IMG/VR virus record: IMGVR_UViG_2850778813_000004
Source of the DNA: a virus
Lineage: Duplodnaviria; Heunggongvirae; Uroviricota; Caudoviricetes
DNA length: 48,008 nt
Direction: 5' to 3' (one strand)
The number at the start of each line of letters is the position of its first letter. Within the stretch, counting starts at the first letter, position 1. The notes beneath the pieces are model-generated. The model saw only the letters and a program-made list of their open reading frames with translations, searched no databases and was not told where the DNA came from. This document shows, piece by piece, positions 15,150 to 48,008 of this stretch. The position numbers and the translations under genes were made by a program.

Positions 15150-15425
15150 GTGGCTTCTGTTTCTATCAGCTGTCCCTCCTGTTCAGCTACTGACGGGGTG
15201 GTGCGTAACGGCAAAAGCACTGCCGGACATCAGCGCTATCTCTGCTCTCACTGCCGTAAAACATGGCAACTGCAGTTCACTTACACCGCTTCTCAACCCG
15301 GTACGCACCAGAAAATTATTGATATGGCCATGAATGGCGTTGGATGCCGGGCAACTGCACGCATTATGGGCGTTAGCCTCAACACGATTTTACGTCACTT
15401 AAAAAACTCAGGCCGCAGTCGGTAA
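15150..15425 (+). CDS. insA: IS1 InsA
   Basis: 91-aa ORF identical to the other copies. Confidence 0.9.
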
Positions 15426-15469
15426 CCTCGCGCATACAGCCGGGCAGTGACGTCATCGTCTGCGCGGAA

Positions 15470-15847
15470 ATGGACGAACAGTGGGGATACGTCGGGGCTA
15501 AATCGCGCCAGCGCTGGCTGTTTTACGCGTATGACAGGCTCCGGAAGACGGTTGTTGCGCACGTATTCGGTGAACGCACTATGGCGACGCTGGGGCGTCT
15601 TATGAGCTTGCTGTCACCCTTTGACGTGGTGATATGGATGACGGATGGCTGGCCACTGTATGAATCCCGCCTGAAGGGAAAGCTGCACGTAATCAGCAAG
15701 CGATATACGCAGCGAATTGAGCGGCATAACCTGAATCTGAGGCAGCACCTGGCACGGCTGGGACGGAAGTCGCTGTCGTTCTCAAAATCGGTGGAGCTGC
15801 ATGACAAAGTCATCGGGCATTATCTGAACATAAAACACTATCAATAA
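15470..15847 (+). CDS. insB: IS1 InsB reading frame (expressed as InsAB' by frameshifting)
   Basis: Intact 125-aa ORF at IS positions 376-753. Confidence 0.85.
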
Positions 15848-19621: not shown

Positions 19622-19999
19622 TTATTGATAGTGTTTTATGTTCAGATAATGCCCGATGACTTTGTCATGCAGCTCCACCGATTTTGAGAACGACAGCGAC
19701 TTCCGTCCCAGCCGTGCCAGGTGCTGCCTCAGATTCAGGTTATGCCGCTCAATTCGCTGCGTATATCGCTTGCTGATTACGTGCAGCTTTCCCTTCAGGC
19801 GGGATTCATACAGTGGCCAGCCATCCGTCATCCATATCACCACGTCAAAGGGTGACAGCAAGCTCATAAGACGCCCCTGCGTCGCCATAGTGCGTTCACC
19901 GAATACGTGCGCAACAACCGTCTTCCGGAGCCTGTCATACGCGTAAAACAGCCAGCGCTGGCGCGATTTAGCCCCGACGTATCCCCACTGTTCGTCCAT
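19622..19999 (-). CDS. insB: IS1 InsB reading frame
   Basis: 125-aa ORF, IS1 copy c. Confidence 0.85.
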
Positions 20000-20043
20000 T
20001 TCCGCGCAGACGATGACGTCACTGCCCGGCTGTATGCGCGAGG

Positions 20044-20319
20044 TTACCGACTGCGGCCTGAGTTTTTTAAGTGACGTAAAATCGTGTTGAGGCTAACGCC
20101 CATAATGCGTGCAGTTGCCCGGCATCCAACGCCATTCATGGCCATATCAATAATTTTCTGGTGCGTACCGGGTTGAGAAGCGGTGTAAGTGAACTGCAGT
20201 TGCCATGTTTTACGGCAGTGAGAGCAGAGATAGCGCTGATGTCCGGCAGTGCTTTTGCCGTTACGCACCACCCCGTCAGTAGCTGAACAGGAGGGACAGC
20301 TGATAGAAACAGAAGCCAC
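20044..20319 (-). CDS. insA: IS1 InsA
   Basis: 91-aa ORF, IS1 copy c. Confidence 0.9.
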
Positions 20320-21508: not shown

Positions 21509-22081
21509 TCACAGCTCAGGCCATACGATATCCGGGGCTGTATTTATATCAATCCGACTCACTAATACCCGGTATTTTTTCCAGGAAGATAGCATCGAAA
21601 CCTCCTCATCAGTTGCCATTTCAAAATTAACAGCATCCTGCAGAATTGTTATGTTATCAGTCGCTTCCTGGATTAATCTTGTCTTTTTCTCTTCCGCCTC
21701 CCGGATCCGGAAGAGTTTTTCTGCTTCCGTATCCTTCACCCAGGCTGTGCCGTTCCACTTCTGAAACTCCCCTTCCGGGGATAACCAAGTGACATTTCCC
21801 GGTAATGAGCCGAGTTCAGAAATAAATAACGCGTCGCCGGAAGCCACGTCATAAACCGTTTTACCCCGATGATCTTCAACGAGATGCCACGATGCCTCAT
21901 CACTGTTGAAAACAGCCACAAAGCCAGCAGGAATATCTGGTGGTGCAATATCGGTACTGTTTGCTGGCAGACCTGTATGAGGCGGAATATATGCGTCACC
22001 TTCACCAATAAATTCATTAGTTCCGGCCAGCAGATTATAAATTTTTATGGTCCGTGCTTGTTCACTCATTCTGAATGCCAT
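21509..22081 (-). CDS. tfa: Tail fibre assembly protein Tfa
   Basis: 190 aa starting [37 protein letters not shown]...; start overlaps the stf stop (TAATG). Confidence 0.85.
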
Positions 22082-23447
22082 TATGCAAGCCTCACAATAT
22101 AGTTAAATGCGATGTTTTTGACGGTGTTTTCCGCGTTACCCGCAGCGTTAACGGTGATGGTGTGTCCATGTGAACCAATCGCAACGGAGTGCGTATGCGC
22201 ACCAATACCTACAGTATGTGCATGTGCGCCAGAACTTGCTGCAGTACCAGACAGCGAGTGGGTATGAGCACCTGCTGACTGTGTCTGAATACGTTGATAA
22301 TACGATCTACGGGAAGAAGTCCCCGGGCTTACTTGATACTGTGAATTCTGGACATAAGTGAACCCACCGCCATCATAAAATGCTAACGCAGAACCGCCGC
22401 CTCCTGGCCAACGAATACCATTACCATGAGTATGAACACCGGCAGACCCCGTAGAGCCACTCAGACTGTGCGTATGCGCCCCGGTGTTATTCGTGGATTT
22501 AGTGCCGTAATCAAACGACGATGTGGTTTTCGTCCCCAAATCCGTACTGGATGCGCTGGCGCTGTGGGTGTGCGATTTAATGCCGTCCTGTTCCTGAGAC
22601 AATACGGCCCGACCACTGGCAGGTTTGCCCTTAATCGTCCAGCCACGCATATCAGGGATCACGCCTGACGGATAAGCGGCTGCAAGTTTCGGGTAAGCAG
22701 ATTTGTCAAAAGTCTGCCCCTGCATCAGGGCATAACCAGACGGAACGGTATCTGATGGCCACGGGATTGGTGCGCCGACTGGGTAGCTTTCTGGTGGAAG
22801 ATTTTTCGAGGTATAAACTTCTGCCCAGCCTTCCTCAAAACCATAACCGTCTCTTGAAGAACGGTAGAACAGACCACCATTTCTGTAATGCGCCTTCATC
22901 TGCAGGGTCCGGCAACTTCCGACTCCGGTATAGAAGTTAACCAGAATATAGCTGTCGCCAGAGCGGGTGACATTGTAAGCGCCTGATTCGGCATTCCAGG
23001 GAACGGCTCCATCCGAATCCGCATAAGCCCCCGTCGAACGTCGGGCAAATGCACCAATATTTTCCGGCGTGAGGTTAATATCCGCCGAGCCATCAAACTT
23101 AACACCGTTAATTTTTGGGGCTGCCGCAAGTTTCGTCGCGGTATCGGCGTTCCCCTTCAGTGCCCCGGTGATCCCATCAGTAACAAACAACGGACCTGAA
23201 ATAGTCCCTCCAGTCGTTGGCAGCGCTCCAATATCTGATGGTGTAGGTTTCTGATGTGAGCTATACATCGTATAAACAACACCATAGGTAACGCTGGAAG
23301 GCTTACTCGCTGAATATGTTGGCGAGGTATAAACAGAAACTGACGCATTTGCAGTACAATCCCAATGGATATTTACACTCGTCGCATAATTGGGTGATGC
23401 TGCCAACTTACTGATTTAGTGTATGATGGTGTTTTTGAGGTGCTCCA

Positions 23448-23723
23448 GTGGCTTCTGTTTCTATCAGCTGTCCCTCCTGTTCAGCTACTGACGGGGTGGT
23501 GCGTAACGGCAAAAGCACTGCCGGACATCAGCGCTATCTCTGCTCTCACTGCCGTAAAACATGGCAACTGCAGTTCACTTACACCGCTTCTCAACCCGGT
23601 ACGCACCAGAAAATTATTGATATGGCCATGAATGGCGTTGGATGCCGGGCAACTGCACGCATTATGGGCGTTAGCCTCAACACGATTTTACGTCACTTAA
23701 AAAACTCAGGCCGCAGTCGGTAA
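23448..23723 (+). CDS. insA: IS1 InsA
   Basis: 91-aa ORF, IS1 copy d. Confidence 0.9.
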
Positions 23724-23767
23724 CCTCGCGCATACAGCCGGGCAGTGACGTCATCGTCTGCGCGGAA

Positions 23768-24145
23768 ATGGACGAACAGTGGGGATACGTCGGGGCTAAA
23801 TCGCGCCAGCGCTGGCTGTTTTACGCGTATGACAGGCTCCGGAAGACGGTTGTTGCGCACGTATTCGGTGAACGCACTATGGCGACGCTGGGGCGTCTTA
23901 TGAGCTTGCTGTCACCCTTTGACGTGGTGATATGGATGACGGATGGCTGGCCACTGTATGAATCCCGCCTGAAGGGAAAGCTGCACGTAATCAGCAAGCG
24001 ATATACGCAGCGAATTGAGCGGCATAACCTGAATCTGAGGCAGCACCTGGCACGGCTGGGACGGAAGTCGCTGTCGTTCTCAAAATCGGTGGAGCTGCAT
24101 GACAAAGTCATCGGGCATTATCTGAACATAAAACACTATCAATAA
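23768..24145 (+). CDS. insB: IS1 InsB reading frame
   Basis: 125-aa ORF, IS1 copy d. Confidence 0.85.
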
Positions 24146-26042
24146 GTTGGAGTCATTACCGCATAATTGCCAATCTCAACGTAAATATCATATGTATCGC
24201 CGGATGTGTTGATCCAGGCGAAATTCGTTAATCCGACGGCTGTACGCTTCCACAAAGCCCCGGTAATTCCTTTGGGGTTTCCATTGCCTGCTCGTAGAAC
24301 CAGTTCTGAAATGCCTGCCTGATGTGGGGAACCGACGTTGTAACCAGCGCCACCAATCAATGCGATGTAAACGATGGAACTCGCTTGTGGCATGGTAACC
24401 GTAGCCAGTTTGAACCACCCAGCCCCGCCAGAGAAAGACATCGTTACTGAATTTAAAGTACCAATATCTTTCGGCGTTAATGTTATATCCGCAGTCAATG
24501 CTTTTCCGTTAACTTTTCGGTTAGATGGCACCCTGCTATTCGCATTGTCATTGGCTGCTTTAACTGCTTTTGGCGTTGCGGCCAGCGATTCACTGGTGCT
24601 ATCAACAGCACTGCTAAGTTTCACAACACCTTTAGTTGTAAGGCTTGCGTCTTCCATCGCAACTGCACCGGCAATCTCTTCAGCACGATCAGCAGCAGCT
24701 TCCGCACGGGTCGCAGCGGATTCAGCAGTAGTTTTGCTCTGAGATGCTGCCGTCGCACTGCCTGCCGCCTCTGTTGCCTTCGTGGATGCCGTCGTGGCGC
24801 TGCTCTTCGCTGCTGACGCTTGTCTGGTCGCCTCATCTTTTGAAGCAGACGCCGATGATGCCGATGACGCCGCCGAACTGGCGGACGATGCGGCAGCCGT
24901 TTTTGAGGATTCTGCGCTGGTTTCCGACGCTTTCGCGTTCGTTTCGGATGTCTTCGCTGCGGAAGCAGACCTCGCTGCTGCGCTGGCCTGTTCAGTGGCT
25001 TCGCCAGCCTTCGTTGTGGCTGTTGAAGCAGACGATGCGGAGCTTTCTGCCGATTTTCCGGCGGCGGTGACACTGGCTGAGGCCTGCCCGGCACTTGTTG
25101 ACGCTGCACTGGCAGACGACGCAGCCGCTGTTTTTGAGCCTGCCGCAGCTGAGGCACTCTGTTCCGCTGCCGTTTCAGAAGACCTGGCGTTTGTCTCAGA
25201 CGTTTTTGCCGCCTTCGCAGAATTTGCTGCCGCCGTTGCCGAGGAAGCTGCGCTGCTGGCGCTCGAGGCTGCGTTCGTTTCTGATGATTTTGCCGCCTCT
25301 TTTGAAGCCGACGCATCCCGTGCTGAAGTGGCTGCTTCTGACGCTTTCGTGGTCGCGGTGGATGCAGAAGTGGCTGCTGATTGTTGTGACGCTGCCGCAT
25401 TCGTTTCTGACGTTTTCGCCGCACCGGCACTGGTAGCCGCCGCGCTTTTTGAGGACTCTGCAGCGGCAGCACTTTTTAATGCTTCAGTGGCCTTTGTTGA
25501 TGCCGTTCCTGCGCTGGAAGACGCTGACTGAGCCGACGACGCGGCCTGTCCGGCTGACGTGCTGGCGGCACGTGCTGAGGCTGCAGCATCGGTTGCATGA
25601 GTTGCCGCCTCGCTGGCTGATGCACTGGCATCGCTGGCTGATTTTTTCGCGGCTGCCGTATTCTGTGCAACCGCGGAGGCGTTACGTGACACCTCTTCCA
25701 CCATCTGCTCAAAGCGGCGCAGTGCCTCCGGTCGGACATCATCCTCCGTCATGGCACCGAGAAAATCATTCAGCGTACCTGGTCTGGAACCTTCATAGAC
25801 GGTAATGGTCCCGGCATGTGAAGGCGGAAAACCTTCAACCAGCAGGGTGACGCTGTACTGACCATGCTCAACATCCATGCTGTAACGTCCGGCTTCATCC
25901 GGATTTTCAGAGGCCACCGTGTTCACCACCACCGTGCTGCTGGTTCGTCTGGCCTTCAGCACAATGGTGCAGTTCTGTACTGGTTTTCCTGTGCCATCTT
26001 TAAGCACGCCAGAAATTTTTACTGTCATACTTTTCCACCAAT

Positions 26043-26845: not shown

Positions 26846-29800
26846 TCAGCTAATCGTGATGCCTGCAGTGGCTTTCTTCATCACCACAACCAGCAAATCG
26901 CTGATACTTGCTGTGGGATACCAGTTATTTACCAGCCATGCTGACACCGAAAACTCCAGTGTCATGTGACCGTGACCGGCAGGCATATCAATAACACCAC
27001 TGTAAATCAGCGTATTATCCAGCGCGGTACGGTTATAAATTTCAGCACCGTTTTTCCGCACTATCAGACGGCATGAGGAGTAAATATCAGTATGCTCTTT
27101 CTCATGTTTAGCGCCGCTGAATGCCACCGCCGGAATAACAATCTGCCGGTCAAACGGCTGATCGTCATAAACCCTGACGGTAATGGTTCCTGATGGCCAC
27201 CGCTCTGGTGCACGGGAGTCCCGGGGGAAAGCTTTGCCCACTGTTTTAACGAGATCGCCTTCAATCTGGTTCGCGGACAATTTTCCCAGAACCCGACAGT
27301 TCTCGTTAATAGTGACGTTGTTGAGCGTCCCGGAGTTCGCATTCACGTTACCGCTGATATCGGCATTTTTCGCCGTCAGCCGCCCGTCCGGTGTCAGGGA
27401 AAATGCCGGAGGATTACCGCCGCTGGTAATGGTGGGAGCCGTCAGATATTTCAGGAACACTTCATTCATAAATATCTGATCGCCCTGACCAACAAACATC
27501 GGCTTTGTGTTGCCATTCGCAGGATTAATCATCGCAATCCTGTCTGCCGCCAGCAGCACCTGACTCTGCATTCCTGCTGGCGTATTCTCAATACCGGCAC
27601 CGATACCCGCAATATAAAGGCGTCCGTCCTGCATCTGCTGCAGTTTCACGGCCCACATGCTGTTCAGGTTATTATTTGTATCAACCTGAACTTTCTGTAT
27701 CTGCTGGATTGCCGCACTCTGATTTTCCAGTTTTTTATTGACGGTCTGCGTGATTTCATTGCTGACATTCGTAATGGACGTCCTGATTTCAGCCAGGTCC
27801 GGTGCAAGCTGACCGTTATCAATCTGCGTCCACAGCTCCTGGGCCAGATGTGTTTTCCCGATTTCTCCTTTGAAAAAATCCAGGTAACCTTCCACATCAT
27901 CGCTCGCCCGACCGACAGCCTCCACGAATGCCGATTTGCCAACAGTATTCACACTGCGGATATAAAAATAATAATCATGGCCCGGTTTGATATTGATACT
28001 GGCAGCTATCCAGTACAGCGCCGAGCCAAGATAGCGGGCTGCGGTTTCAACCTGCCTGATATCCGCAATCCGCTTTTCCGAGAACCAGAACTCAAACTGT
28101 ACCGTCGGGTCATAAACGGCAAGATGTGGCGTTGCGGTTATCTGAAAATAGCCCGGCGTCAGTTCAATGGTGGCGGGTTTTGCTGGCGCGTTAATCCGGA
28201 AGGTGGTGGTGGCCGGTTCGCCCTGCTGGCCATAACTGTTAATTGCCCTGACTGTCAGGGTGTATTCCCCGAGCGGCAGACCACTGAAACGATGCTCTGT
28301 ATCCGCAGTGATAGCGGTGGTCACCAGACGGCTGTCTTCTCCGCTTCCGCTGGTCAGTCGCAGACTGAAGCGCACCCCCTTCACCACCCGCGGCGTGTCC
28401 CATTTCGCCTGTGCCAGATACTGGCCGTCAGCTGCGCTCACCTCCACCGTCAGGTGCTGCACTGCCGGTGGGATGACGCTGTTCGGGGAGCCTGACTGCG
28501 GCTCAAAGCGGGCACCGTTATCCACGATGGCTTCTTTTTCCGGTACGTGCTGCACCGCCGTGATGGCAAAGGTGCCGTCCGTGTTTTCCCGGACGGAGAC
28601 ACAGCGGAACAGGCGACGGCGCAGTGACGGCAGGGAGAGTCCCCACACCCCGTATGTCTCCACACCATCAGGCAGGGTACTGACCTGTATCCGGTCCGGC
28701 GCGGGGTGTGCGGTGATGTCCACACTCACCGGCTTACCGCTGCCGTTAATCAGGTTCACCGCCGATGTACCTGTCTCCGGCAGGGTAACCTCACGGTCCA
28801 GCGTCAGGGTGCGGGTGGCAGCATCAATGGACAGGACACGTCCACCGGTCAGGGTCCCGGCATAGTCATTATCACAGATTTCAATAATGTCACCGGGTGT
28901 GTGCCGCAGCCCCTGAGACCCGAGCGTGAAGTCCACCGTCTGCGTTTCCAGCAGTTCGGTCTTTATCACCCACAGTCCGGCACGGTGGGCCTGACCGCGG
29001 CTGGTACAGCCGAACGCGTCCATCTTCAGCAGATTGCGCCCGTAGCGCAGTATGGCTTCCGGGTCTTCCACCAGTTCCGTGGAGGTCTGCCAGCCGTTCT
29101 GCGGGTCGGTGTAATTCACCTCCACCGCCGTGTGCCGGTCCTTCAGGGCACTGAAGCTGTAGCGGAACCCCACGCCGTTATCATCCACCACCACATCGCT
29201 GTTGGTGTACGGCCACACCACATCCGACAGGCGGTCCTGAACAAACGTCAGCATCTGGCCGTTCCATACCGGCATACAGCGCATCGCAGAGCAGAAATCA
29301 CTGAGAACGTCCCACGCCTTACGCTGTTGTGCCAGGTACGCATTAAAGGTCATCCGCGGCTCGGTCCCCCCGAAACCATCCGGGACCGTCTGGTCGCAGT
29401 ACTGCCCGATGGCATACAGCGCCCACTTGTCCACATCCGCCGCCCCCAGACGTTTTCCCATGCCGTAGCGCGGGTGAGTCAGCATGTCCCACAGGCACCA
29501 GGCCGGGTTGTTGCTGTATGCCGGTTTCAGACTGCCGTCCCAGATACCACTGTACGTGCGTTTTTCCGGGTCATAGTTTGACGGCACCTGGATGATGCGA
29601 CCGCGGATATGGTAGTTCACCGTCATCTGCTGACCACCAAACTGCTCCGCATCCACCTGCATCCCCACAATGGCCGTGTTCGGGTAGCACTGTTTCACAT
29701 CGATGATTTCGGTGTATGACGACCACAGCGTTCTGTTCTGCAGCTGGTCCGTGGTGCTGTCCGCCGTCTCCCTGACCATCCGGATGTTAAAGGGGCGGGG

Positions 29801-30319
29801 AGGCAGATTATCCAGAATCACCGAGGCCAGGAACTGTGAGGTGGTCTTGCCGTTAATGGTGACGTCCTTTTCCGTCACCCAGCGGCCATTACGCTGTAAC
29901 TGAATCAGAATCCGGACAGAGGAAGGATTACGGTCGCCCTTTGACGTGGTCTGCACCAGTGACTGCACCCCGAAGGTAACCCGCAGGCGGTCAATGTTCG
30001 CGGACGTAATGGTGCGCGTCACCGGTTTTGCCTTCGTCACTTCCACGCCCAGTCCGGTTTCAGCTCCGGAGGACTCAAAGCCTTCCGGTGGTGTCTGCTC
30101 CTGCTCCCCGGCGCGCCAGACCGCCGTCACACCGTGTATCACGGGATTGCCGTCCGTGTCCGTCAGTGGGGTTTTGTTCACCAGAATACTCTGCAGTCCC
30201 TTCACCGGACCTTCTATCGGTCCCTCACCAATCGCATCAATCACACTCATCATCTGCGTGGATTTGAGATTATCCTTCGCCTCACGAGGCGTGTGTGCCT
30301 TACCGCCACCTTTTCCCAT
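26846..30319 (-). CDS. J: Tail tip / host specificity protein J
   Basis: 1157 aa from ATG at 30319 (SD ggggaagg); [37 protein letters not shown]... and conserved fibronectin-like and C-terminal receptor-binding regions are collinear with lambda J. Confidence 0.9.
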
Positions 30320-30420
30320 ACAGCCTTCCCCTGAATAAATTAACCGCCACTTTCCATTCCGTACAGAAGTCGGATATCCTTCGCCCGAAAAGCATGAAAC
30401 ACATTTCTGCCATGCTAAAG

Positions 30421-30452
30421 AAAACCCCGGTATCAGCAGATACCGGGGTTTT
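30421..30452. terminator. Bidirectional intrinsic terminator hairpin in the I-J spacer
   Basis: AAAA-ccccggtat-cagcag-ataccgggg-TTTT; perfect 9-bp stem, T tracts on both strands. Confidence 0.65.
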
Positions 30453-30523
30453 CTTTCATGCCCACCGATAATCCTGTTGGTTAAAACCGGTAATGGCATA
30501 AAAATTCTGAATATCTTCACATT

Positions 30524-30551
30524 TTCACACACTGACTGTGGCGCTTATAAT
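30524..30551 (+). promoter_or_regulatory. Sigma70-like promoter (-35 TTCACA, 16-nt spacer, -10 TATAAT) antisense to the tail operon
   Basis: TTCACA at 30524-30529 and consensus TATAAT at 30546-30551 within an AT-rich spacer. Confidence 0.5.
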
Positions 30552-30557
30552 TTCGCT

Positions 30558-30656
30558 GCGTTAGTGTTTTTTTGCCCGAGTAACAAAAACAACTCCTTCA
30601 CATTGATCTTCATTTGTCTGTCCCCGCAGCTCCGCGATCACTGCGGGATTTTTTTA
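30558..30656 (+). ncRNA. Candidate small RNA (about 100 nt) from a promoter-terminator unit between I and J
   Basis: Predicted start about 7 nt past the -10; ends at GC stem 30623-30647 plus T7 (30649-30655). No ORF with a ribosome-binding site inside. Confidence 0.35.
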
Positions 30657-30660
30657 TGTT

Positions 30661-31332
30661 TTATCCCTGTCGCCCGATAACCACGACCTTTCCGCCCCCG
30701 CCTTCATCACGGGTGCTGATGTCCTGGGATATACGGCGGGAGCCAACCAGCATTTCCCCGTAAGGCACCGGCATCGGGTTCCCCTGGGCAATCATGTTAT
30801 CCAGCGAGGAAAAGTACGTGTTCTGTCTGCCGTTATCCGTTGCGCGGTAATCCGGTGTTTTTGCCTTCGGGGCCAGCATCTGGGCCACACCGCCCAGAAT
30901 CATGCTGGCTCCAAGTGAAAACAGCATCGTGGTGGCAGAAAAACCACCGGCTGCCAGGGCTGAACCCCATAACGCCATTGATGCCCCGGCAGTGAAGAAA
31001 GAGCCCACGATGGCTGCCGCCCCCAACACAATCTGCAGTCCACCCTTTCCGGCCCCGGCCAGTCGCGGCACAATGTGGATGACCGTTCCCTCACCCAGCT
31101 GTTCGTGAAGACGGGCATACACCGCCTCCGGTGCCGTGTCATCACCGGCAATACGTATCTGGTACCAGCCTTCGTTCATCTGACGGCGAAAGCCCGGCAT
31201 CTGCATCGACAGGGCGCGAATGGCTTCCGCTGCCGTGTTCACATACAGGCTGAGGCGGCGGCCAAATCGTTGCAAATCCCCGTGAAGGCAGATGGTGAAG
31301 CAGCTCACCGTTGCCGCAGTAAATGGTGGCAT
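30661..31332 (-). CDS. I: Tail assembly protein I
   Basis: 223 aa from ATG at 31332; ...ICLHGDLQRFGRR...AIRALSMQMPGFRRQ...LAGAGKGG... collinear with lambda I. Confidence 0.8.
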   Translation of the reverse strand: MPPFTAATVSCFTICLHGDLQRFGRRLSLYVNTAAEAIRALSMQMPGFRRQMNEGWYQIRIAGDDTAPEAVYARLHEQLGEGTVIHIVPRLAGAGKGGLQIVLGAAAIVGSFFTAGASMALWGSALAAGGFSATTMLFSLGASMILGGVAQMLAPKAKTPDYRATDNGRQNTYFSSLDNMIAQGNPMPVPYGEMLVGSRRISQDISTRDEGGGGKVVVIGRQG

Positions 31333-40357: not shown

Positions 40358-41863
40358 TCATGGCATGGCCATGAGCATTTTCACGTCCGCATCACCGTCT
40401 GCTGACGTCTGTGACACGCCACCCCGCACCGCTGCCGGTGAATGATTCGCCATGAAATGTTCAAACAGGGCGGTTGTGGATGCAGAGACCGGTTCGGCCT
40501 TACCTGATCCCGCAGCCAGCACAGCCCGGGCGTTCTCCACGGTCATTCCCGGGCAGGCCGCCAGTTTTTCAGCCTGCGCTTCTGCCCCTTTTGCCTCATC
40601 CAGGGCCATGATCTGATCACGAAGTGAGGGCCCGGCATCCGCCAGTGGTGCAGCCGCCAGGATCGGGCGGGCTTTTTCCACCGTCATCTCCGGCATCGCC
40701 GCCAGCGTTGCCGCCAGTTGTTCACGACCGTTCGCTTCTTCACACGCCATAATGCGATCGGCTTCACTCTGCGCGGATGCCACCGGCTGCTGCGGTGCCG
40801 CCGCGGCCAGAATCGCCCGGGCCTGTTCAACGCTCATGCCCTGTTGCCCTGCCAGCATCGTGGCAAGCTGTTCACGTCCTTTCGCTTCCTGGCATGTCAG
40901 GATCCCCATCACTCGCTGGTTCTCCTGCACGGCGGCTTCCGTTGCAGTTAATTGCGGCATAGTGCCTCCTCTGACATTACTGTTCAGCGCCGTGGCCATC
41001 ACACTGATGGCATCCGACGCATTGATTAATTCATCCGCCAGCCCGGCCTCAATGCCGGACTGACCTTCAAAAACAGCGGCCTCTGTTCCCGTGACTGCAT
41101 CAACAGACAGACCGGTAAACATCGCCACTTTTTCGGCAAACATCCGGCGCGCCGCATCAATCCGCTGCTGCATGTCCTGGCGAACCTCTGCCGGCAACGC
41201 TTCAAACTGATTGCCATCCACCTTGTGCGCCCCTGAGTAAATCAGCGTGATATCCACACCGGCCTGCGCCAGATGACCGGCATAGCTGACATGGCTCATC
41301 ATCACGCCAATGGAACCGATACGGGATGTCTGGGTAACCAGCCGTCGGGAGCAGGCCGACGCCAGCAGCATGGCCGCAGAACAGGCCGTGTCATTACACA
41401 GTGCCCAGACCGGCTTCTGCTGCCGGAGGCGGTAAATCATGTCAGCGCAGTCAAACACGCCGGCGGCCTGCCCGCCCGGACTGTCAATGTCCAGCAGTAT
41501 GCCCCGCACCTGGCTATCTGCCATTGCCTGCTGAAGACAGGTGACAATGCCGTCATAGCCAGTCATTCCGGAAAATGGCCGCATCCCCCCCAGCCGGTGC
41601 ACCAGCGTGCCGGTCACCGGCAGTACCGCAATACCGTTCACCACCCGGTAAACACGGGCCGGTCGTTTACCTCCGGCCATGTACTCGTCCGTTTCAGCCA
41701 GCATCCCGGGAGCATCAAGCTGTACCTGCTGTTGCGGTACCGAAAGACTTGCTGTCCCCATCTCGCGCCCCAGCGCGCAAAAGAAAACCCGCGCATAGGC
41801 GGGCTCCAGAAGCAGCGGTTCATTGAATGCTGCTGCAATAATGTGTGAAAGATTACGTCTCAC
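40358..41863 (-). CDS. C: Capsid maturation protease / scaffold (lambda C-Nu3 homologue, S49 peptidase)
   Basis: 501-aa ORF (GTG start at 41863, overlapping the portal stop); SppA/ClpP-like domain followed by three tandem ~45-aa repeats at residues ~318-456. Confidence 0.85.
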   Translation of the reverse strand: MRRNLSHIIAAAFNEPLLLEPAYARVFFCALGREMGTASLSVPQQQVQLDAPGMLAETDEYMAGGKRPARVYRVVNGIAVLPVTGTLVHRLGGMRPFSGMTGYDGIVTCLQQAMADSQVRGILLDIDSPGGQAAGVFDCADMIYRLRQQKPVWALCNDTACSAAMLLASACSRRLVTQTSRIGSIGVMMSHVSYAGHLAQAGVDITLIYSGAHKVDGNQFEALPAEVRQDMQQRIDAARRMFAEKVAMFTGLSVDAVTGTEAAVFEGQSGIEAGLADELINASDAISVMATALNSNVRGGTMPQLTATEAAVQENQRVMGILTCQEAKGREQLATMLAGQQGMSVEQARAILAAAAPQQPVASAQSEADRIMACEEANGREQLAATLAAMPEMTVEKARPILAAAPLADAGPSLRDQIMALDEAKGAEAQAEKLAACPGMTVENARAVLAAGSGKAEPVSASTTALFEHFMANHSPAAVRGGVSQTSADGDADVKMLMAMP

Positions 41864-42638
41864 GTGGTGTTGTCTCCTCTTCCGGCCTGCGACTCTCCGC
41901 TATCTGCTGCTGATACGCCTGCGCTATCCACACCGGACGTGAGAGTCCGGCTTTTTCCCGCTCTGCAGATTCCCTGACCTGTTGGCAGAAAATGTCCTGA
42001 TAATCCTCGCCCATCAGCGCCAGCTCTTTCTCATACGTGCTCAGTCCGGCCTCAATGCGCATCACTGATTCCTGAACCTCCTTGAGCCCGTCAATGGCCA
42101 TTCTTCCGGCTCCAATCCACTCAGCCCGTGACCAGGCTGATCGCGCCTGATAAAAATCAAACCGTGCCCGTGGCGGACGAATAATCCCCCGAAGAAGTGC
42201 CTCTTCCAGCCAGCAGGAAAACATCTGCGTGGCCAGCCGGGACGCAATAAATTTTCGCCGCCCCATAAAATAGCGCCACGACTCATTGGCGGATGCGCGG
42301 GCACTTGAGTAACTGACCTTCGAGTAATCACGGGACAACTGTTCGTAGGAAACGCCAAGACCGGCGGCGATATACCGCAGCAGCGCCTGTTCAAGCGCCG
42401 AAAATCCATTGTCTGAATCCTGCGCGGTCTGAAGTTTCAGATCATCACCGGGGAAAAGGTGCGGAATTTTGACACCGCCCAGCATCACGCTATTCGTGTC
42501 ATACCAGGTGGAGAACTTATCCAGAATATTAATAAGCGGATTATCCTTCTGCCCCTGCGGCGCACCGGCGATATATTCAAAGGCCTTTTCGGTATCAAGG
42601 TCACTTTCAATCGTCGCTGCATACATCGCCTTTATGAA
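41853..42638 (-). pseudogene. B: Portal protein B, 3' fragment only (roughly the last 260 codons)
   Basis: Homology to lambda B starts at ...FIKAMYAATIESDLD (lambda ...VKAMYAATIESELD, about residue 290) and runs to the stop; upstream sequence is unrelated. Confidence 0.85.
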
Positions 42639-43833: not shown

Positions 43834-44652
43834 TTAAGCAGCCATCTGATGATATTTTTCCCTGAAGGCTGCCGGGGAGATATTCCCCAGACGAGAGTGA
43901 CGACGCTGACGATTGTAGAAAATCTCAATGTATTCCCGTATTACTGAGATGGCTTCATCCCGGTTATTAAAACGATAGTGGCTCAGGCTCTCATTTTTCA
44001 GCGTTCCCCAGAAGCTTTCCATCGGAGCGTTGTCGTAACAGTGACCTTTACGCGACATTGATGTTTTCAGACCAGACTGCTCCTGTATGACCCGGTAATC
44101 GTATGCGCAGTACTGTGAACCTCGATCAGAGTGGTGGATTAGCCCGGCAGGTGGGCGCTGGCTCCTGAGCGCCATAAACAGGGCTTTACCTGTCAGCTCT
44201 TTTGTCATGCGCTCTCCCATGGCGTAGCCGACAATTTCGCACGTATAAACATCTTTGATGCCAGCGAGGTACAACCATCCCTCCTGTGTGGCAACATACG
44301 TCAGGTCCGCCACCCAGACCTGATTTGGTGCTGTAGGAGCGAACGTCTGGTTCAGCAGATTTGGCGCAACTGGCAGATTGTGGTTCGGGTTCGTAGTCGC
44401 TCTGAACTTGCGTTTCTGCTTACAGCGTAGCCTTAGCTCCTTACGAAGACGTGCCAGTCGGTCACGACCAACGATGATGCCATTCTCTGCCAGCTCCGTC
44501 TGGAGCCGCCGGGTTCCATATGTTTCGCGAGTGCGGATATGTGCCACCTTAATCTCCAGTTTTAGCCGCTCATCACTTTGTTTTCTGTCTGAGGGTTCAT
44601 GCTGTACCCAGTTGTAATAACCGCTCCTGGATACACCAAATACCTGACACAT
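43834..44652 (-). CDS. IS600-like orfB (DDE transposase)
   Basis: 272-aa ORF with the IS3-family DDE region (...LIHHSDRGSQYCA...CYDNAPMESFWGTLKNE...). Confidence 0.85.
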   Translation of the reverse strand: MCQVFGVSRSGYYNWVQHEPSDRKQSDERLKLEIKVAHIRTRETYGTRRLQTELAENGIIVGRDRLARLRKELRLRCKQKRKFRATTNPNHNLPVAPNLLNQTFAPTAPNQVWVADLTYVATQEGWLYLAGIKDVYTCEIVGYAMGERMTKELTGKALFMALRSQRPPAGLIHHSDRGSQYCAYDYRVIQEQSGLKTSMSRKGHCYDNAPMESFWGTLKNESLSHYRFNNRDEAISVIREYIEIFYNRQRRHSRLGNISPAAFREKYHQMAA

Positions 44653-44687
44653 CGCTTCAATGGGAAATTGTTGTCGCCATTGTTCGA

Positions 44688-44990
44688 TTAACGCGTATTT
44701 TTCAGCGACTCCTGTGCAAAATACGCTGTTGCTTTTTTTAATATATCTCGCTCAAGGCGAGCTTCATTTAACGCCTTACGCAGTTGCAGAATTTCAGATT
44801 CCAGTTCAGCCACCGTGCGGGAACCAGGAGTACCGAGCCCTTTTCTGGCGGCGGTAACCCATTGTCCTAAAGTGCCTTCAGGAAGGGATAATCGGGAAGC
44901 GCCTTCACTGATCGAAAGTTGATTTTCAAGAACCGTTCTGACAGCTTCGGCTTTGAACTCTTTAGAGTAACGTTGGTTTTTTCTGCTCAT
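44688..44990 (-). CDS. IS600-like orfA
   Basis: 100-aa ORF identical to 14724-15026. Confidence 0.85.
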   Translation of the reverse strand: MSRKNQRYSKEFKAEAVRTVLENQLSISEGASRLSLPEGTLGQWVTAARKGLGTPGSRTVAELESEILQLRKALNEARLERDILKKATAYFAQESLKNTR

Positions 44991-45618: not shown

Positions 45619-46038
45619 ATGGAACAGAAAGCATTATCTGCAGAACCCCGCAGATCATTTTCAAATGAGTTTAAACTTCAAATGGTTAAACTGGCTTCAC
45701 AACCAGGAGCCTCTGTTGCCCGTATTGCCCGGGAACACGATATCAATGATAACCTGCTGTTCAAATGGCTCAGGCTCTGGCAGAACGAAGGGCGCATATC
45801 GCGGCGTCTTCCGGTAACAACCTCTTCTGACACTGGCGTTGAATTATTACCTGTGGAGATAACGCCGGATGAGCCGAAAGAACCGGTGGCTGCTCTTACT
45901 CCGTCTTTATCTACTCAGACTACAGTTAGTGCCAGCTCCTGCAAGGTGGAGTTCCGTCACGGTAACATGACGCTGGAAAATCCTTCACCAGAGCTGCTCA
46001 CAGTGTTGATCCGTGAACTGACCGGGAGGGGACGATGA
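45619..46038 (+). CDS. IS66-family accessory protein TnpA (orfA)
   Basis: Identical to 1-420. Confidence 0.85.
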   Translation: MEQKALSAEPRRSFSNEFKLQMVKLASQPGASVARIAREHDINDNLLFKWLRLWQNEGRISRRLPVTTSSDTGVELLPVEITPDEPKEPVAALTPSLSTQTTVSASSCKVEFRHGNMTLENPSPELLTVLIRELTGRGR

Positions 46039-46385
46039 TCTCACACCCGTCAGGCACCCGCATCTGGCTCGTTGCTGGGATAACCGATATGCGTAAGTCT
46101 TTCAACGGGCTGGGTGAACAGGTACAGCATGTGCTGAATGATAATCCCTTCTCCGGTCACCTGTTCATCTTCCGTGGCCGACGGGGTGACATGATTAAAA
46201 TCCTGTGGGCTGATGCTGATGGTCTGTGCCTGTTCACCAGACGCCTGGAGGAAGGCCAGTTTATCTGGCCTGCTGTGCGTGACGGCAAGGTATCCATTAC
46301 CCGCTCGCAACTGGCAATGCTCCTCGATAAGCTGGACTGGCGTCAGCCAAAAACATCCCGCCTTAACGCACTGACAATGTTGTAA
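46035..46385 (+). CDS. IS66-family TnpB (orfB)
   Basis: Identical to 417-767. Confidence 0.85.
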   Translation: MISHPSGTRIWLVAGITDMRKSFNGLGEQVQHVLNDNPFSGHLFIFRGRRGDMIKILWADADGLCLFTRRLEEGQFIWPAVRDGKVSITRSQLAMLLDKLDWRQPKTSRLNALTML

Positions 46386-46415
46386 AAATGTCATGGCCGG
46401 ATTATAAAAACGGCC

Positions 46416-48008
46416 ATGAATCAAAAATACCTCATTCGCATTGCAGAACTGGAATGCCAGCTCCGTCAGAAAGACCAGCAACTGAGTCTGGTTGAAGAGA
46501 CGGAGGCCTTCCTGCGCTCTGCACTGGCCCGCGCCGAAGAAAAGATCGAAGAAGATGAACGGGAAATAGAACATCTGCGGGCTCAGATAGAAAAACTGCG
46601 CCGGATGCTGTTCGGTACCCGTTCTGAAAAACTGCGTCGTGAAGTTGAACAGGCTGAGGCCCTGCTGAAACAACGCGAACAGGACAGTGATCGTTACAGT
46701 GGGCGGGAAGACGATCCGCAGGTTCCCCGCCAGTTGCGACAGTCTCGTCATCGTCGCCCGTTACCGGAGCATCTGCCCCGCGAAATAAATCGCCTGGAGC
46801 CAGAAGAAAGCTGTTGCCCGGAGTGTGGCGGTGAGCTGGATTATCTGGGGGAAGTCAGCGCAGAACAACTGGAACTGGTGAGCAGCGCTCTGAAAGTGAT
46901 CCGCACAGAACGGGTAAAAAAAGCCTGTACAAAATGTGACTGCATCGTTGAAGCACCGGCACCATCCCGTCCGATAGAGCGTGGTATCGCGGGCCCGGGG
47001 TTACTTGCCCGCATGTTAACGGGAAAATACTGCGAACACCTGCCACTGTATCGTCAGAGTGAAATTTTTGCCCGTCAGGGTGTCGAACTGAGCCGTGCAT
47101 TACTCTCCAACTGGGTTGACGCGTGCTGCCAGTTAATGACGCCGCTGAATGATGCTCTGTACCGTTATGTGATGAACAGCCGCAAAGTTCACACTGATGA
47201 CACACCAGTAAAAGTGCTGGCACCGGGCAGGAAGAAGGCGAAAACAGGATATATCTGGACGTATGTCCGGGATGACAGGAATGCCGGTTCGCCAGAGCCT
47301 CCGGCGGTCTGGTTCGCCTACTCACCGGACCATCAGGGTAAACATCCGGAGCAGCACCTTAGTCCCTTCCGGGGTATCCTGCAGGCAGATGCGTTTAATG
47401 GTTACGATCGGCTGTTCAGTGCCGAACGAGAAGGCGGCGCGTTGACGGAAGCAGGATGCTGGGCTCATGCGCGGCGCAAAGTCCACGATGTATATATCAG
47501 TACCAAAAGCGCGACAGCGGAAGAAGCCCTGAAACTAATCGGTGAGCTGTATGCCATCGAGCACGAAATACGCGGGTTGCCGGTGTCTGAACGCCTGGCG
47601 GTCAGGCAAATGCAGAGTAAACCGCTACTGACTTCCCTGTATAAGCTGATGCAGGAGAAAGAACACACGTTATCGAAAAAATGCCGTCTGAGAGATGCGT
47701 TCCGGTATATCAGGAAGCACTGGGTTGCGTTGTGCAACTTCAGTGATGATGGTCTGGCTGAGGCGGATAATAATGCCGCGGAAAGAGCGCTTCGTGCAGT
47801 CTGTCTCGGAAAGAAAAACTTTATGTTCTTCGGCAGCGATCACGGTGGAGAGCGTGGTGCGCTACTGTACGGGCTGATCGGCACCTGCCGACTGAACGGT
47901 ATCGATCCGGAAGCGTATCTGCGCTATATCCTGAGCGTACTGCCGGAATGGCCTTCCAACCGTGTTGACGAACTCCTGCCATGGAACGTAGCACTCACCA
48001 ATAAATAA
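46416..48008 (+). CDS. IS66-family transposase TnpC
   Basis: 530 aa, identical in protein sequence to 798-2390 (one synonymous difference at 47552). Confidence 0.9.
   Translation: MNQKYLIRIAELECQLRQKDQQLSLVEETEAFLRSALARAEEKIEEDEREIEHLRAQIEKLRRMLFGTRSEKLRREVEQAEALLKQREQDSDRYSGREDDPQVPRQLRQSRHRRPLPEHLPREINRLEPEESCCPECGGELDYLGEVSAEQLELVSSALKVIRTERVKKACTKCDCIVEAPAPSRPIERGIAGPGLLARMLTGKYCEHLPLYRQSEIFARQGVELSRALLSNWVDACCQLMTPLNDALYRYVMNSRKVHTDDTPVKVLAPGRKKAKTGYIWTYVRDDRNAGSPEPPAVWFAYSPDHQGKHPEQHLSPFRGILQADAFNGYDRLFSAEREGGALTEAGCWAHARRKVHDVYISTKSATAEEALKLIGELYAIEHEIRGLPVSERLAVRQMQSKPLLTSLYKLMQEKEHTLSKKCRLRDAFRYIRKHWVALCNFSDDGLAEADNNAAERALRAVCLGKKNFMFFGSDHGGERGALLYGLIGTCRLNGIDPEAYLRYILSVLPEWPSNRVDELLPWNVALTNK

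Follow-up and report, generated by a model that had tools for sequence, protein, structure and literature searches.

Layout of the spacer between tail genes I and J

The DNA analysed here, hereafter the window, is a 48,008-nucleotide stretch of viral sequence (IMG/VR record IMGVR_UViG_2850778813_000004). Its left 26 kb are chromosomal (metG, yeh, btsS), about 96% identical to E. coli and interrupted by insertion sequences. The prophage is a remnant. Only a C-terminal fragment of the portal gene is left (41853-42626), and no terminase, lysis or regulatory region is found within the window. The first-pass annotation had remarked that no Q gene is present, and the absence of a recognised Q gene in the window fits a prophage remnant truncated by insertion sequences.

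The tail operon is carried by the minus strand. J starts with an ATG (reverse complement at 30317-30319) and I stops with a TAA (reverse complement of 30661-30663), which leaves a spacer of 341 bp, from 30320 to 30660 (Table 1). The first-pass annotation, made from the letters alone, had placed the same I stop and J start and had described a gene-less promoter-terminator unit between them. The gene ends and a site scan bear this out. The boundaries that it gave for the spacer were right and the length, 340 bp, was one short. Ahead of the true ATG, the J reading frame has no stop codon for another 213 nt; it runs across the palindrome as far as a GTG at 30532 (26846-30532, minus strand). In the ASU11 annotation, a spurious 66-aa 'hypothetical protein' is found in this open stretch upstream of the J ATG, which is thus a trap for gene callers.

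The unit itself is read from the plus strand. The TTCACA/TATAAT promoter proposed earlier is confirmed. Scanning region 29800-31200 for promoter-like sites gave two sites where 0.7 are expected, the second being an overlapping variant of the one at 30524-30551. Across the family described below, the -10 position is kept as TATAAT, AATAAT, GATAAT or TATCAT. Further downstream, the GC hairpin followed by T7 that had been read as a plus-strand terminator was recovered both by the site scan and by folding. Its stem pairs CCCGCAG (30623-30629) with CTGCGGG (30641-30647), and the T7 tract occupies 30649-30655. [quoted passage not shown]

Table 1 Features of the window, with the basis on which each was placed
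Feature	Position	Strand	Basis and remarks
IS66-family copies	1-2390 and 45619-48008		Window ends
IS1 copies, three	15150-15847, 19622-20319, 23448-24145		One splits the tail-fibre gene 22081-26028
Tail tip / host-specificity gene J	26846-30319	-	ORF and N-terminal sequence; gpJ annotation in near-identical prophages
Left spacer part, lineage-specific (PPompW-type)	30320-30496		Unrelated to the left part of the E2348/69 spacer
18-bp perfect palindromic hairpin	30417-30456	both	A run before, T run after; bidirectional intrinsic terminator
Nearly invariant block AATAAAAATTCTGAATATCTTCACATTTTC	30497-30526	+	15 homologues; putative function
pasB promoter	30524-30551	+	-35 TTCACA 30524-30529, 16-nt spacer, -10 TATAAT 30546-30551; 11 of 12 consensus matches
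22-codon ORF MKINVKELFLLLGQKNTNAAKL, not a gene	30545-30613	-	Compared in 15 homologues
Possible 5' extension, conserved GCGUUA and U run	30558-30572	+	Predicted from promoter geometry
PasB sRNA, 83 nt	30573-30655	+	Ends published for E2348/69; window identical there
A-rich (A-R-N)n tract AACAAAAACAAC then CUCCUU	30582-30598	+	Read from sequence
Single-stranded motif (U)GAUCUUCAU just upstream of terminator	30604-30613	+	94% column identity
Intrinsic terminator / Hfq-binding module of PasB	30623-30655	+	7-bp stem, 11-nt loop, A, U7
Tail assembly gene I	30661-31242	-	Pfam Lambda_tail_I; annotated tail assembly protein in E. coli 55989 and E2348/69
IS3-type element	43834-44990		After the portal fragment

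Identity of the plus-strand unit with PasB

Region 30497-30680 of the window aligns at 100% identity with the I-J spacer of enteropathogenic E. coli (EPEC) E2348/69. The identical stretch begins about 75 nt before 30573 and continues for 25 nt after the terminator. In that strain, the spacer encodes PasB (pathogenicity-associated sRNA B, E2348CN_0006), described by Pearl Mizrahi et al. in 2021 (PMC8550237). PasB was mapped to NC_011601.1, 1466343..1466261, on the minus strand, as an 83-nt RNA of prophage PP6 flanked by E2348C_1436 (I) and E2348C_1437 (J), and its Northern probe is AATCCCGCAGTGATCGCGGAGCT (Table S6, PMC8550237). The reverse complement of this probe has a single match in the window (30628-30650), free of mismatches, where none is expected by chance. 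I (1465674-1466255) and J (from 1466496) are on the plus strand of E2348/69 and PasB is antisense to them on the minus strand, the same arrangement as in the window.

No Rfam family reached its gathering score in the entire window. With E-values up to 10, the spacer only gave weak, terminator-shaped matches to unrelated sRNA families. Because no Rfam model matched, the identification rests on sequence identity together with the literature. On this basis, the I-J unit is the already published Hfq-dependent prophage sRNA PasB, rediscovered. The small-RNA moron that had been proposed here, with its own promoter and terminator and antisense to the tail operon, corresponds to this published sRNA. 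The RNA was correctly predicted; its length was given as about 100 nt, the published one being 83 nt. As a kind, the unit is nothing new: PasB was described in 2021 and its distribution in 2026, and relatives from enterohaemorrhagic E. coli (EHEC) had been found by Hfq crosslinking in 2014. Nonetheless, a genuine, validated sRNA gene was recovered from raw letters alone and its anatomy was read almost correctly.

In E2348/69, several properties have been reported for this same sequence. The size of PasB and the dependence of its stability on Hfq were confirmed on Northern blots. In an hfq mutant, the log2 fold change of PasB is -6.8 under activating and -2.4 under non-activating conditions. 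The RNA is more abundant in overnight static LB (non-activating) than in DMEM. RIL-seq recorded 37 Hfq-mediated RNA-RNA contacts, in essentially all of which PasB is the second RNA of the chimera, as sRNAs are. By RIL-seq criteria it is classed as an sRNA, with partners located mostly in coding sequences or 5'UTRs. Base means in that strain are 5 and 15 for tail genes I and J, against 482-1082 for pasB (PMC8550237). The two tail genes are almost silent beside an abundant PasB, which indicates that the RNA is made from its own promoter in the lysogen.

The published 5' end is based on RNA-seq coverage and on an approximate Northern size (PMC8550237). Because it lies 15 nt downstream of the start predicted from TATAAT, it may correspond either to a primary start or to processing. 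A primary transcript would be 98 nt long if transcription starts about 7 nt after TATAAT, at position 30558. The GCGTTA sequence within the corresponding 5' extension is nearly invariant in the family.

In the 83-nt form, the region of AACAAAAACAAC and CUCCUU is predicted to be unpaired. The (A-R-N)n tract occupies 30582-30593 and CUCCUU, at 30593-30598, is complementary to a Shine-Dalgarno sequence. Together they form a candidate Hfq distal-face site and pairing region. Most family members, as well as the tandem paralogue described below, keep AAC/UUCCUUA. The GAUCUUCAU motif is the likely seed of PasB. Zhu, Shabalina and Storz also placed the putative seed just upstream of the terminator (bioRxiv 10.64898/2026.05.13.724894). 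A calculation of PasB against one RIL-seq partner region with RNAduplex returned a full-length duplex and was uninformative.

A family of sRNA units at the I-J junction

BLAST against 5426 complete E. coli genomes found the spacer in 1612 of them, and in every case the flanking genes carry the annotations 'tail assembly protein' and 'gpJ'. The right half of the spacer, which comprises promoter, RNA and terminator (about 30495-30680), occurs in 147 phage records with 74-98% identity, mostly Stx1- and Stx2-converting phages. Among phages, BLAST retrieved the full spacer only in PPompW-type phages and a few others. At the I-J site of Stx and other lambdoid phages, the family has diverged to 43-98% identity. 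The EHEC homologue, of BP-4795 type, was detected in 721 genomes, where the median copy number is four and the maximum ten. An exact scan for an 18-base motif in one genome per species gave 42 matches, where about 17 are expected by chance as estimated from the size of the collection. The only recognisable family member among these 42 matches is that of Escherichia albertii.

To describe the family, two samples were used: 15 aligned phage I-J spacers derived from BLAST and 51 distinct RNA variants obtained from viral contigs by a motif scan. The order of elements is constant. Read on the sRNA strand from J to I, the start of J is followed by an operon-sense hairpin, the invariant block, the -10 element, the RNA, its terminator, 5-6 nt and the stop of I. 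Conservation is concentrated in a few of these elements. In the 15 homologues, in which conservation of the RNA body is 55-73% and its divergence 25-45%, the upstream block has a mean column identity of 96%, with 24 of its 30 columns invariant. In the BLAST-derived set, mean column identity amounts to 97% for the 3' arm of the terminator with the U tract, 94% for the GAUCUUCAU motif and 85% for the AACUCCUU motif; the remaining segments of the RNA body are at 55-86%. The terminator is the sole consensus helix and the rest of the RNA is unstructured. Covariation in the family gave no support for any 5' structure. The only change of this kind concerns one variant (L066), which preserves its terminator by a compensatory double change, CCCACAG/CUGUGGG. 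Hfq-dependent trans-acting sRNAs are typically built in this way, with an unstructured body, a conserved single-stranded motif beside the terminator and a U tail.

The family has members that were already known in EHEC. EcOnc22, EcOnc23 and EcOnc24 of prophages Sp15, Sp14 and Sp11 in E. coli O157:H7 Sakai migrate at about 85 nt on Northern blots and are destabilised without Hfq (Table S2, Tree et al. 2014, PMC4104026). The coordinates of EcOnc22 in Sp15 fall in the I-J spacer, on the strand opposite to the tail genes. In the reverse complement of the EcOnc22/23/24 probe, the 3' 23 nt match the PasB-homologous RNA of Sp15 and of CP-1639. The Sp15 RNA (L017 2337-2427; NC_002695.2 about 2902836-2902926) is about 71% identical to PasB when compared with 30558-30655. 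Judged from these alignments, PasB and EcOnc22-24 are one family. The word 'EcOnc' does not occur in Zhu et al. 2026, and Table S6 of PMC8550237 lists no EHEC homologue for PasB.

In some phages, the I-J spacer carries sRNA units in tandem (L061 9810-10200, minus strand; L116, L136, L076 and L102). An upstream block belongs to each of the two units. The additional one is a diverged paralogue whose terminator differs (CUCCCG/CGGGAG) and whose AACUCCUUA motif is the same. Such tandem arrangements may reflect diversifying selection at the I-J site. In one viral contig (L107), the pasB unit is broken just after the upstream block, apparently by an IS insertion, since a transposase-like ORF comes next.

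The upstream block AATAAAAATTCTGAATATCTTCACATTTTC is a conserved candidate operator. It contains a CRP-like sequence, TCTGA-N6-TCACA, at 30506-30521, with 9 of 10 core positions matched and good flanks. Class II CRP sites have the form TGTGA-N6-TCACA and are centred near -41.5. Here, the centre would lie at about -44.5 from the TATAAT-predicted start, rather than at -41.5. The CRP pattern is found at 3 sites in the 48-kb window versus 1.7 expected, which is not significant by motif alone. The A/T-rich half of the block, from -61 to -43, could equally act as an UP element, and the block may instead be bound by some other factor. Higher levels of PasB in LB than in glucose-rich DMEM are compatible with CRP control, and likewise with RpoS/stationary-phase or low-oxygen control. 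The two PasB papers (2021, 2026) describe no regulator and validate no individual target, and the words 'promoter' and 'CRP' are absent from the text of the 2026 preprint.

On the other side of the unit, the palindrome upstream of J has predicted folding energies of -32.4 kcal/mol on the plus strand and -33.7 kcal/mol on the minus strand (z -8.6 and -7.8). The bidirectional terminator hairpin recognised earlier is therefore real and is longer than the extent of 30421-30452 that it had been given. No second copy of the palindrome was found in the window. The '2 places per record' reported by BLAST were considered as a second copy and rejected, as they result from the palindrome matching itself.

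Most family members have ACAGGCACCC-UCCG-GGGUGCCUGU followed by UGUUUUU on the tail-operon strand, that is, an intrinsic terminator. Its variants include a compensated CAUCC/GGAUG pair and single-step G-U intermediates. Lambda has no pasB. Contrary to the earlier statement that I and J abut in this phage, they are separated by a 60-bp spacer containing an operon-sense hairpin and a U tract (L180 146-205, lambda 15445-15504). Because lambda, devoid of pasB, has this counterpart, the terminator before J is ancestral and not part of the sRNA insert. A cassette of about 180 bp carrying pasB was therefore inserted between the hairpin and the stop of I, which fits a moron: compared with the lambda spacer, the extra segment beside I consists of promoter, RNA and terminator. 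A Stx-type counterpart of the hairpin before J (L009 440-500, minus strand) is homologous neither to that of lambda nor to that of the window.

The left segment of the spacer was found in 13 phage records only, all of PPompW-, ASU11- or vB_EcoS-type. In the lineage of the window, the usual hairpin and its surroundings have been replaced by this unrelated segment of about 175 bp, which carries the palindrome. Replacement by a non-homologous sequence with the function kept suggests selection to stop non-antiterminated transcription before J. The earlier proposal that the hairpin would halt late transcripts that are not antiterminated is thus reasonable, an operon-sense terminator being conserved at this place in the family and in lambda. 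The conserved role of the hairpin would be termination in the operon sense, on the minus strand, upstream of J. Overall, it looks like a conserved terminator or processing site of the late tail operon. We know of no described function for an operon-sense hairpin upstream of J. One viral contig (L157) has a window-type left segment upstream of the pasB unit from which the 18-bp palindrome is precisely missing; the hairpin thus behaves as a separable insertion or deletion.

Possible function and comparison with known systems

We consider it very probable that the unit is a copy of pasB, a moron located between the stop of I and the ancestral hairpin and encoding, antisense to the operon, an Hfq-dependent trans-acting sRNA. 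A sigma-70 promoter at 30524-30551 would drive an RNA of about 83-98 nt ending at the U7 terminator (30623-30655). This RNA would be made in the lysogen, independently of late transcription. Hfq would bind and stabilise PasB, which would then act in trans on mRNAs of the core and accessory genomes, pairing with them imperfectly and most likely through AACUCCUU...GAUCUUCAU, a stretch that is conserved and single-stranded. What has been published for the identical sequence is its expression, size, Hfq dependence and Hfq-mediated contacts; we infer the seed, the direction of regulation, an anti-Shine-Dalgarno mode, the transcription start and control through the upstream block.

Alternatively, the RNA might be mainly cis-acting. 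During lytic growth, it would base-pair with the late tail mRNA across the I-J junction, to which it is fully complementary, and so affect processing or the expression of J. Conversely, late transcription could titrate PasB, and effects in cis may coexist with an action in trans. The constancy of the arrangement argues for such a role, since the gene is always antisense in the late operon, 5-6 nt from the stop of I, across the whole range of divergence of the family, and since an operon-sense terminator always follows it. However, the 37 RIL-seq partners are elsewhere in the genome and PasB is abundant while the tail genes are silent. In addition, the prophage here is defective and therefore has no late operon left to regulate. 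A mainly cis-acting RNA is, in our opinion, quite unlikely.

This defective state also raises the question of whether, in this genome, the unit is still expressed and used or has become an inert relic of prophage decay. The prophage lacks regulatory, lysis and terminase parts, and its portal and tail-fibre genes are cut by IS elements. To judge from its gene content, the late operon in the window must be non-functional; pasB, in contrast, is intact. In promoter, RNA and terminator, the unit does not differ by a single base from the copy expressed in E2348/69, and its promoter is not known to depend on any phage factor. Moreover, PasB has often been kept where no prophage can be recognised (Zhu, Shabalina and Storz 2026, bioRxiv 10.64898/2026.05.13.724894). 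We therefore regard an inert relic as improbable.

The CA-rich AACAAAAACAAC suggested another reading, in which the RNA is an anti-sRNA, or sponge, like AgvB and AsxR, and mimics the targets of GcvB or of another core sRNA. In favour of this, the element is prophage-borne and Hfq-bound, and its A/C-rich (A-R-N)n tract (30582-30593) is similar to what has been described for AgvB, a sequence of the distal-face and GcvB-target type. Against this, the GcvB consensus CACAACA is absent, the sequence of the AACAAAAACAAC tract is not conserved in the family and RIL-seq criteria class PasB as an sRNA whose partners are mostly coding sequences or 5'UTRs. AgvB and AsxR measure 51-60 nt, and their place is the moron site at PR' rather than the tail operon. 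There was no gathering-score match to their Rfam models (RF02702 and RF02703) in the window, and neither model appeared among the matches with E-value <=10 in 30200-30800. AgvB itself, considered as the identity of the RNA in view of the CA-rich tract, was ruled out by the PR' locus, the length of 51-60 nt and the lack of an Rfam match. A sponge function is very improbable.

Finally, the tail-operon strand could encode a small protein (MKINVKELF..., 30545-30613), but this has next to no chance of being the functional product. The 22-codon ORF noted earlier does exist, its first four codons, MKIN, recur in several homologues and hypothetical proteins are annotated there in two phage records. 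In 4 of the 15 homologues compared, however, ACG stands in place of the ATG, the ORF varies between 16 and 39 aa, and the frame is lost past about residue 10 with indels whose lengths are not divisible by three. The Shine-Dalgarno sequence is weak, and the bases that are conserved belong to RNA motif GAUCUUCAU of the opposite strand. The ORF was rejected as a gene, its start, frame and length not being conserved, and no conserved small protein is encoded in these I-J spacers.

The family might also be more than another set of trans-acting prophage sRNAs. PasB and EcOnc22-24 might represent a fixed module of the lambdoid tail operon, combining an operator for a host factor (CRP-like or other) with either a check in cis on J, the host-range protein, or a switch that is turned off by late transcription. 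We hold this idea to be rather unlikely. If it were true, the invariant operator would tie expression of the PasB family to host physiology. Independently of this idea, the homology with the EcOnc RNAs, the invariant block, the AACUCCUU and GAUCUUCAU motifs, the tandem paralogues and the ancestral terminator before J should be useful to studies of PasB.

The closest known system is PasB of E2348/69 itself, with the same sequence, the same strand relative to the tail operon and the same distance of 5-6 nt to the stop of I. The two loci differ to the left of the pasB promoter, where the window has a longer, lineage-specific segment with the 18-bp palindromic terminator, and in that the copy of the window sits in a truncated prophage remnant. 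EcOnc22/23/24 resemble PasB in their I-J location, orientation, size class and Hfq-dependent stability. Both have the upstream block, the GAUCUUCAU motif and the terminator, whereas their 5' halves are different. AgvB and AsxR are, like PasB, short, prophage-encoded, Hfq-binding RNAs with their own promoter and terminator in a moron arrangement. In contrast with PasB, they belong to the convergent sRNA pair located downstream of PR' and Q and are sponges for GcvB and FnrS; they have no sequence in common with it. More generally, the moron concept is said to go back to Juhala and colleagues in 2000, with lom and bor of lambda as examples. pasB shares with phage morons the organisation as an autonomous promoter-gene-terminator cassette, placed between late genes and expressed from a repressed prophage. 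It differs from them in that its cargo is an RNA rather than a protein and in that the cassette is antisense to the operon.
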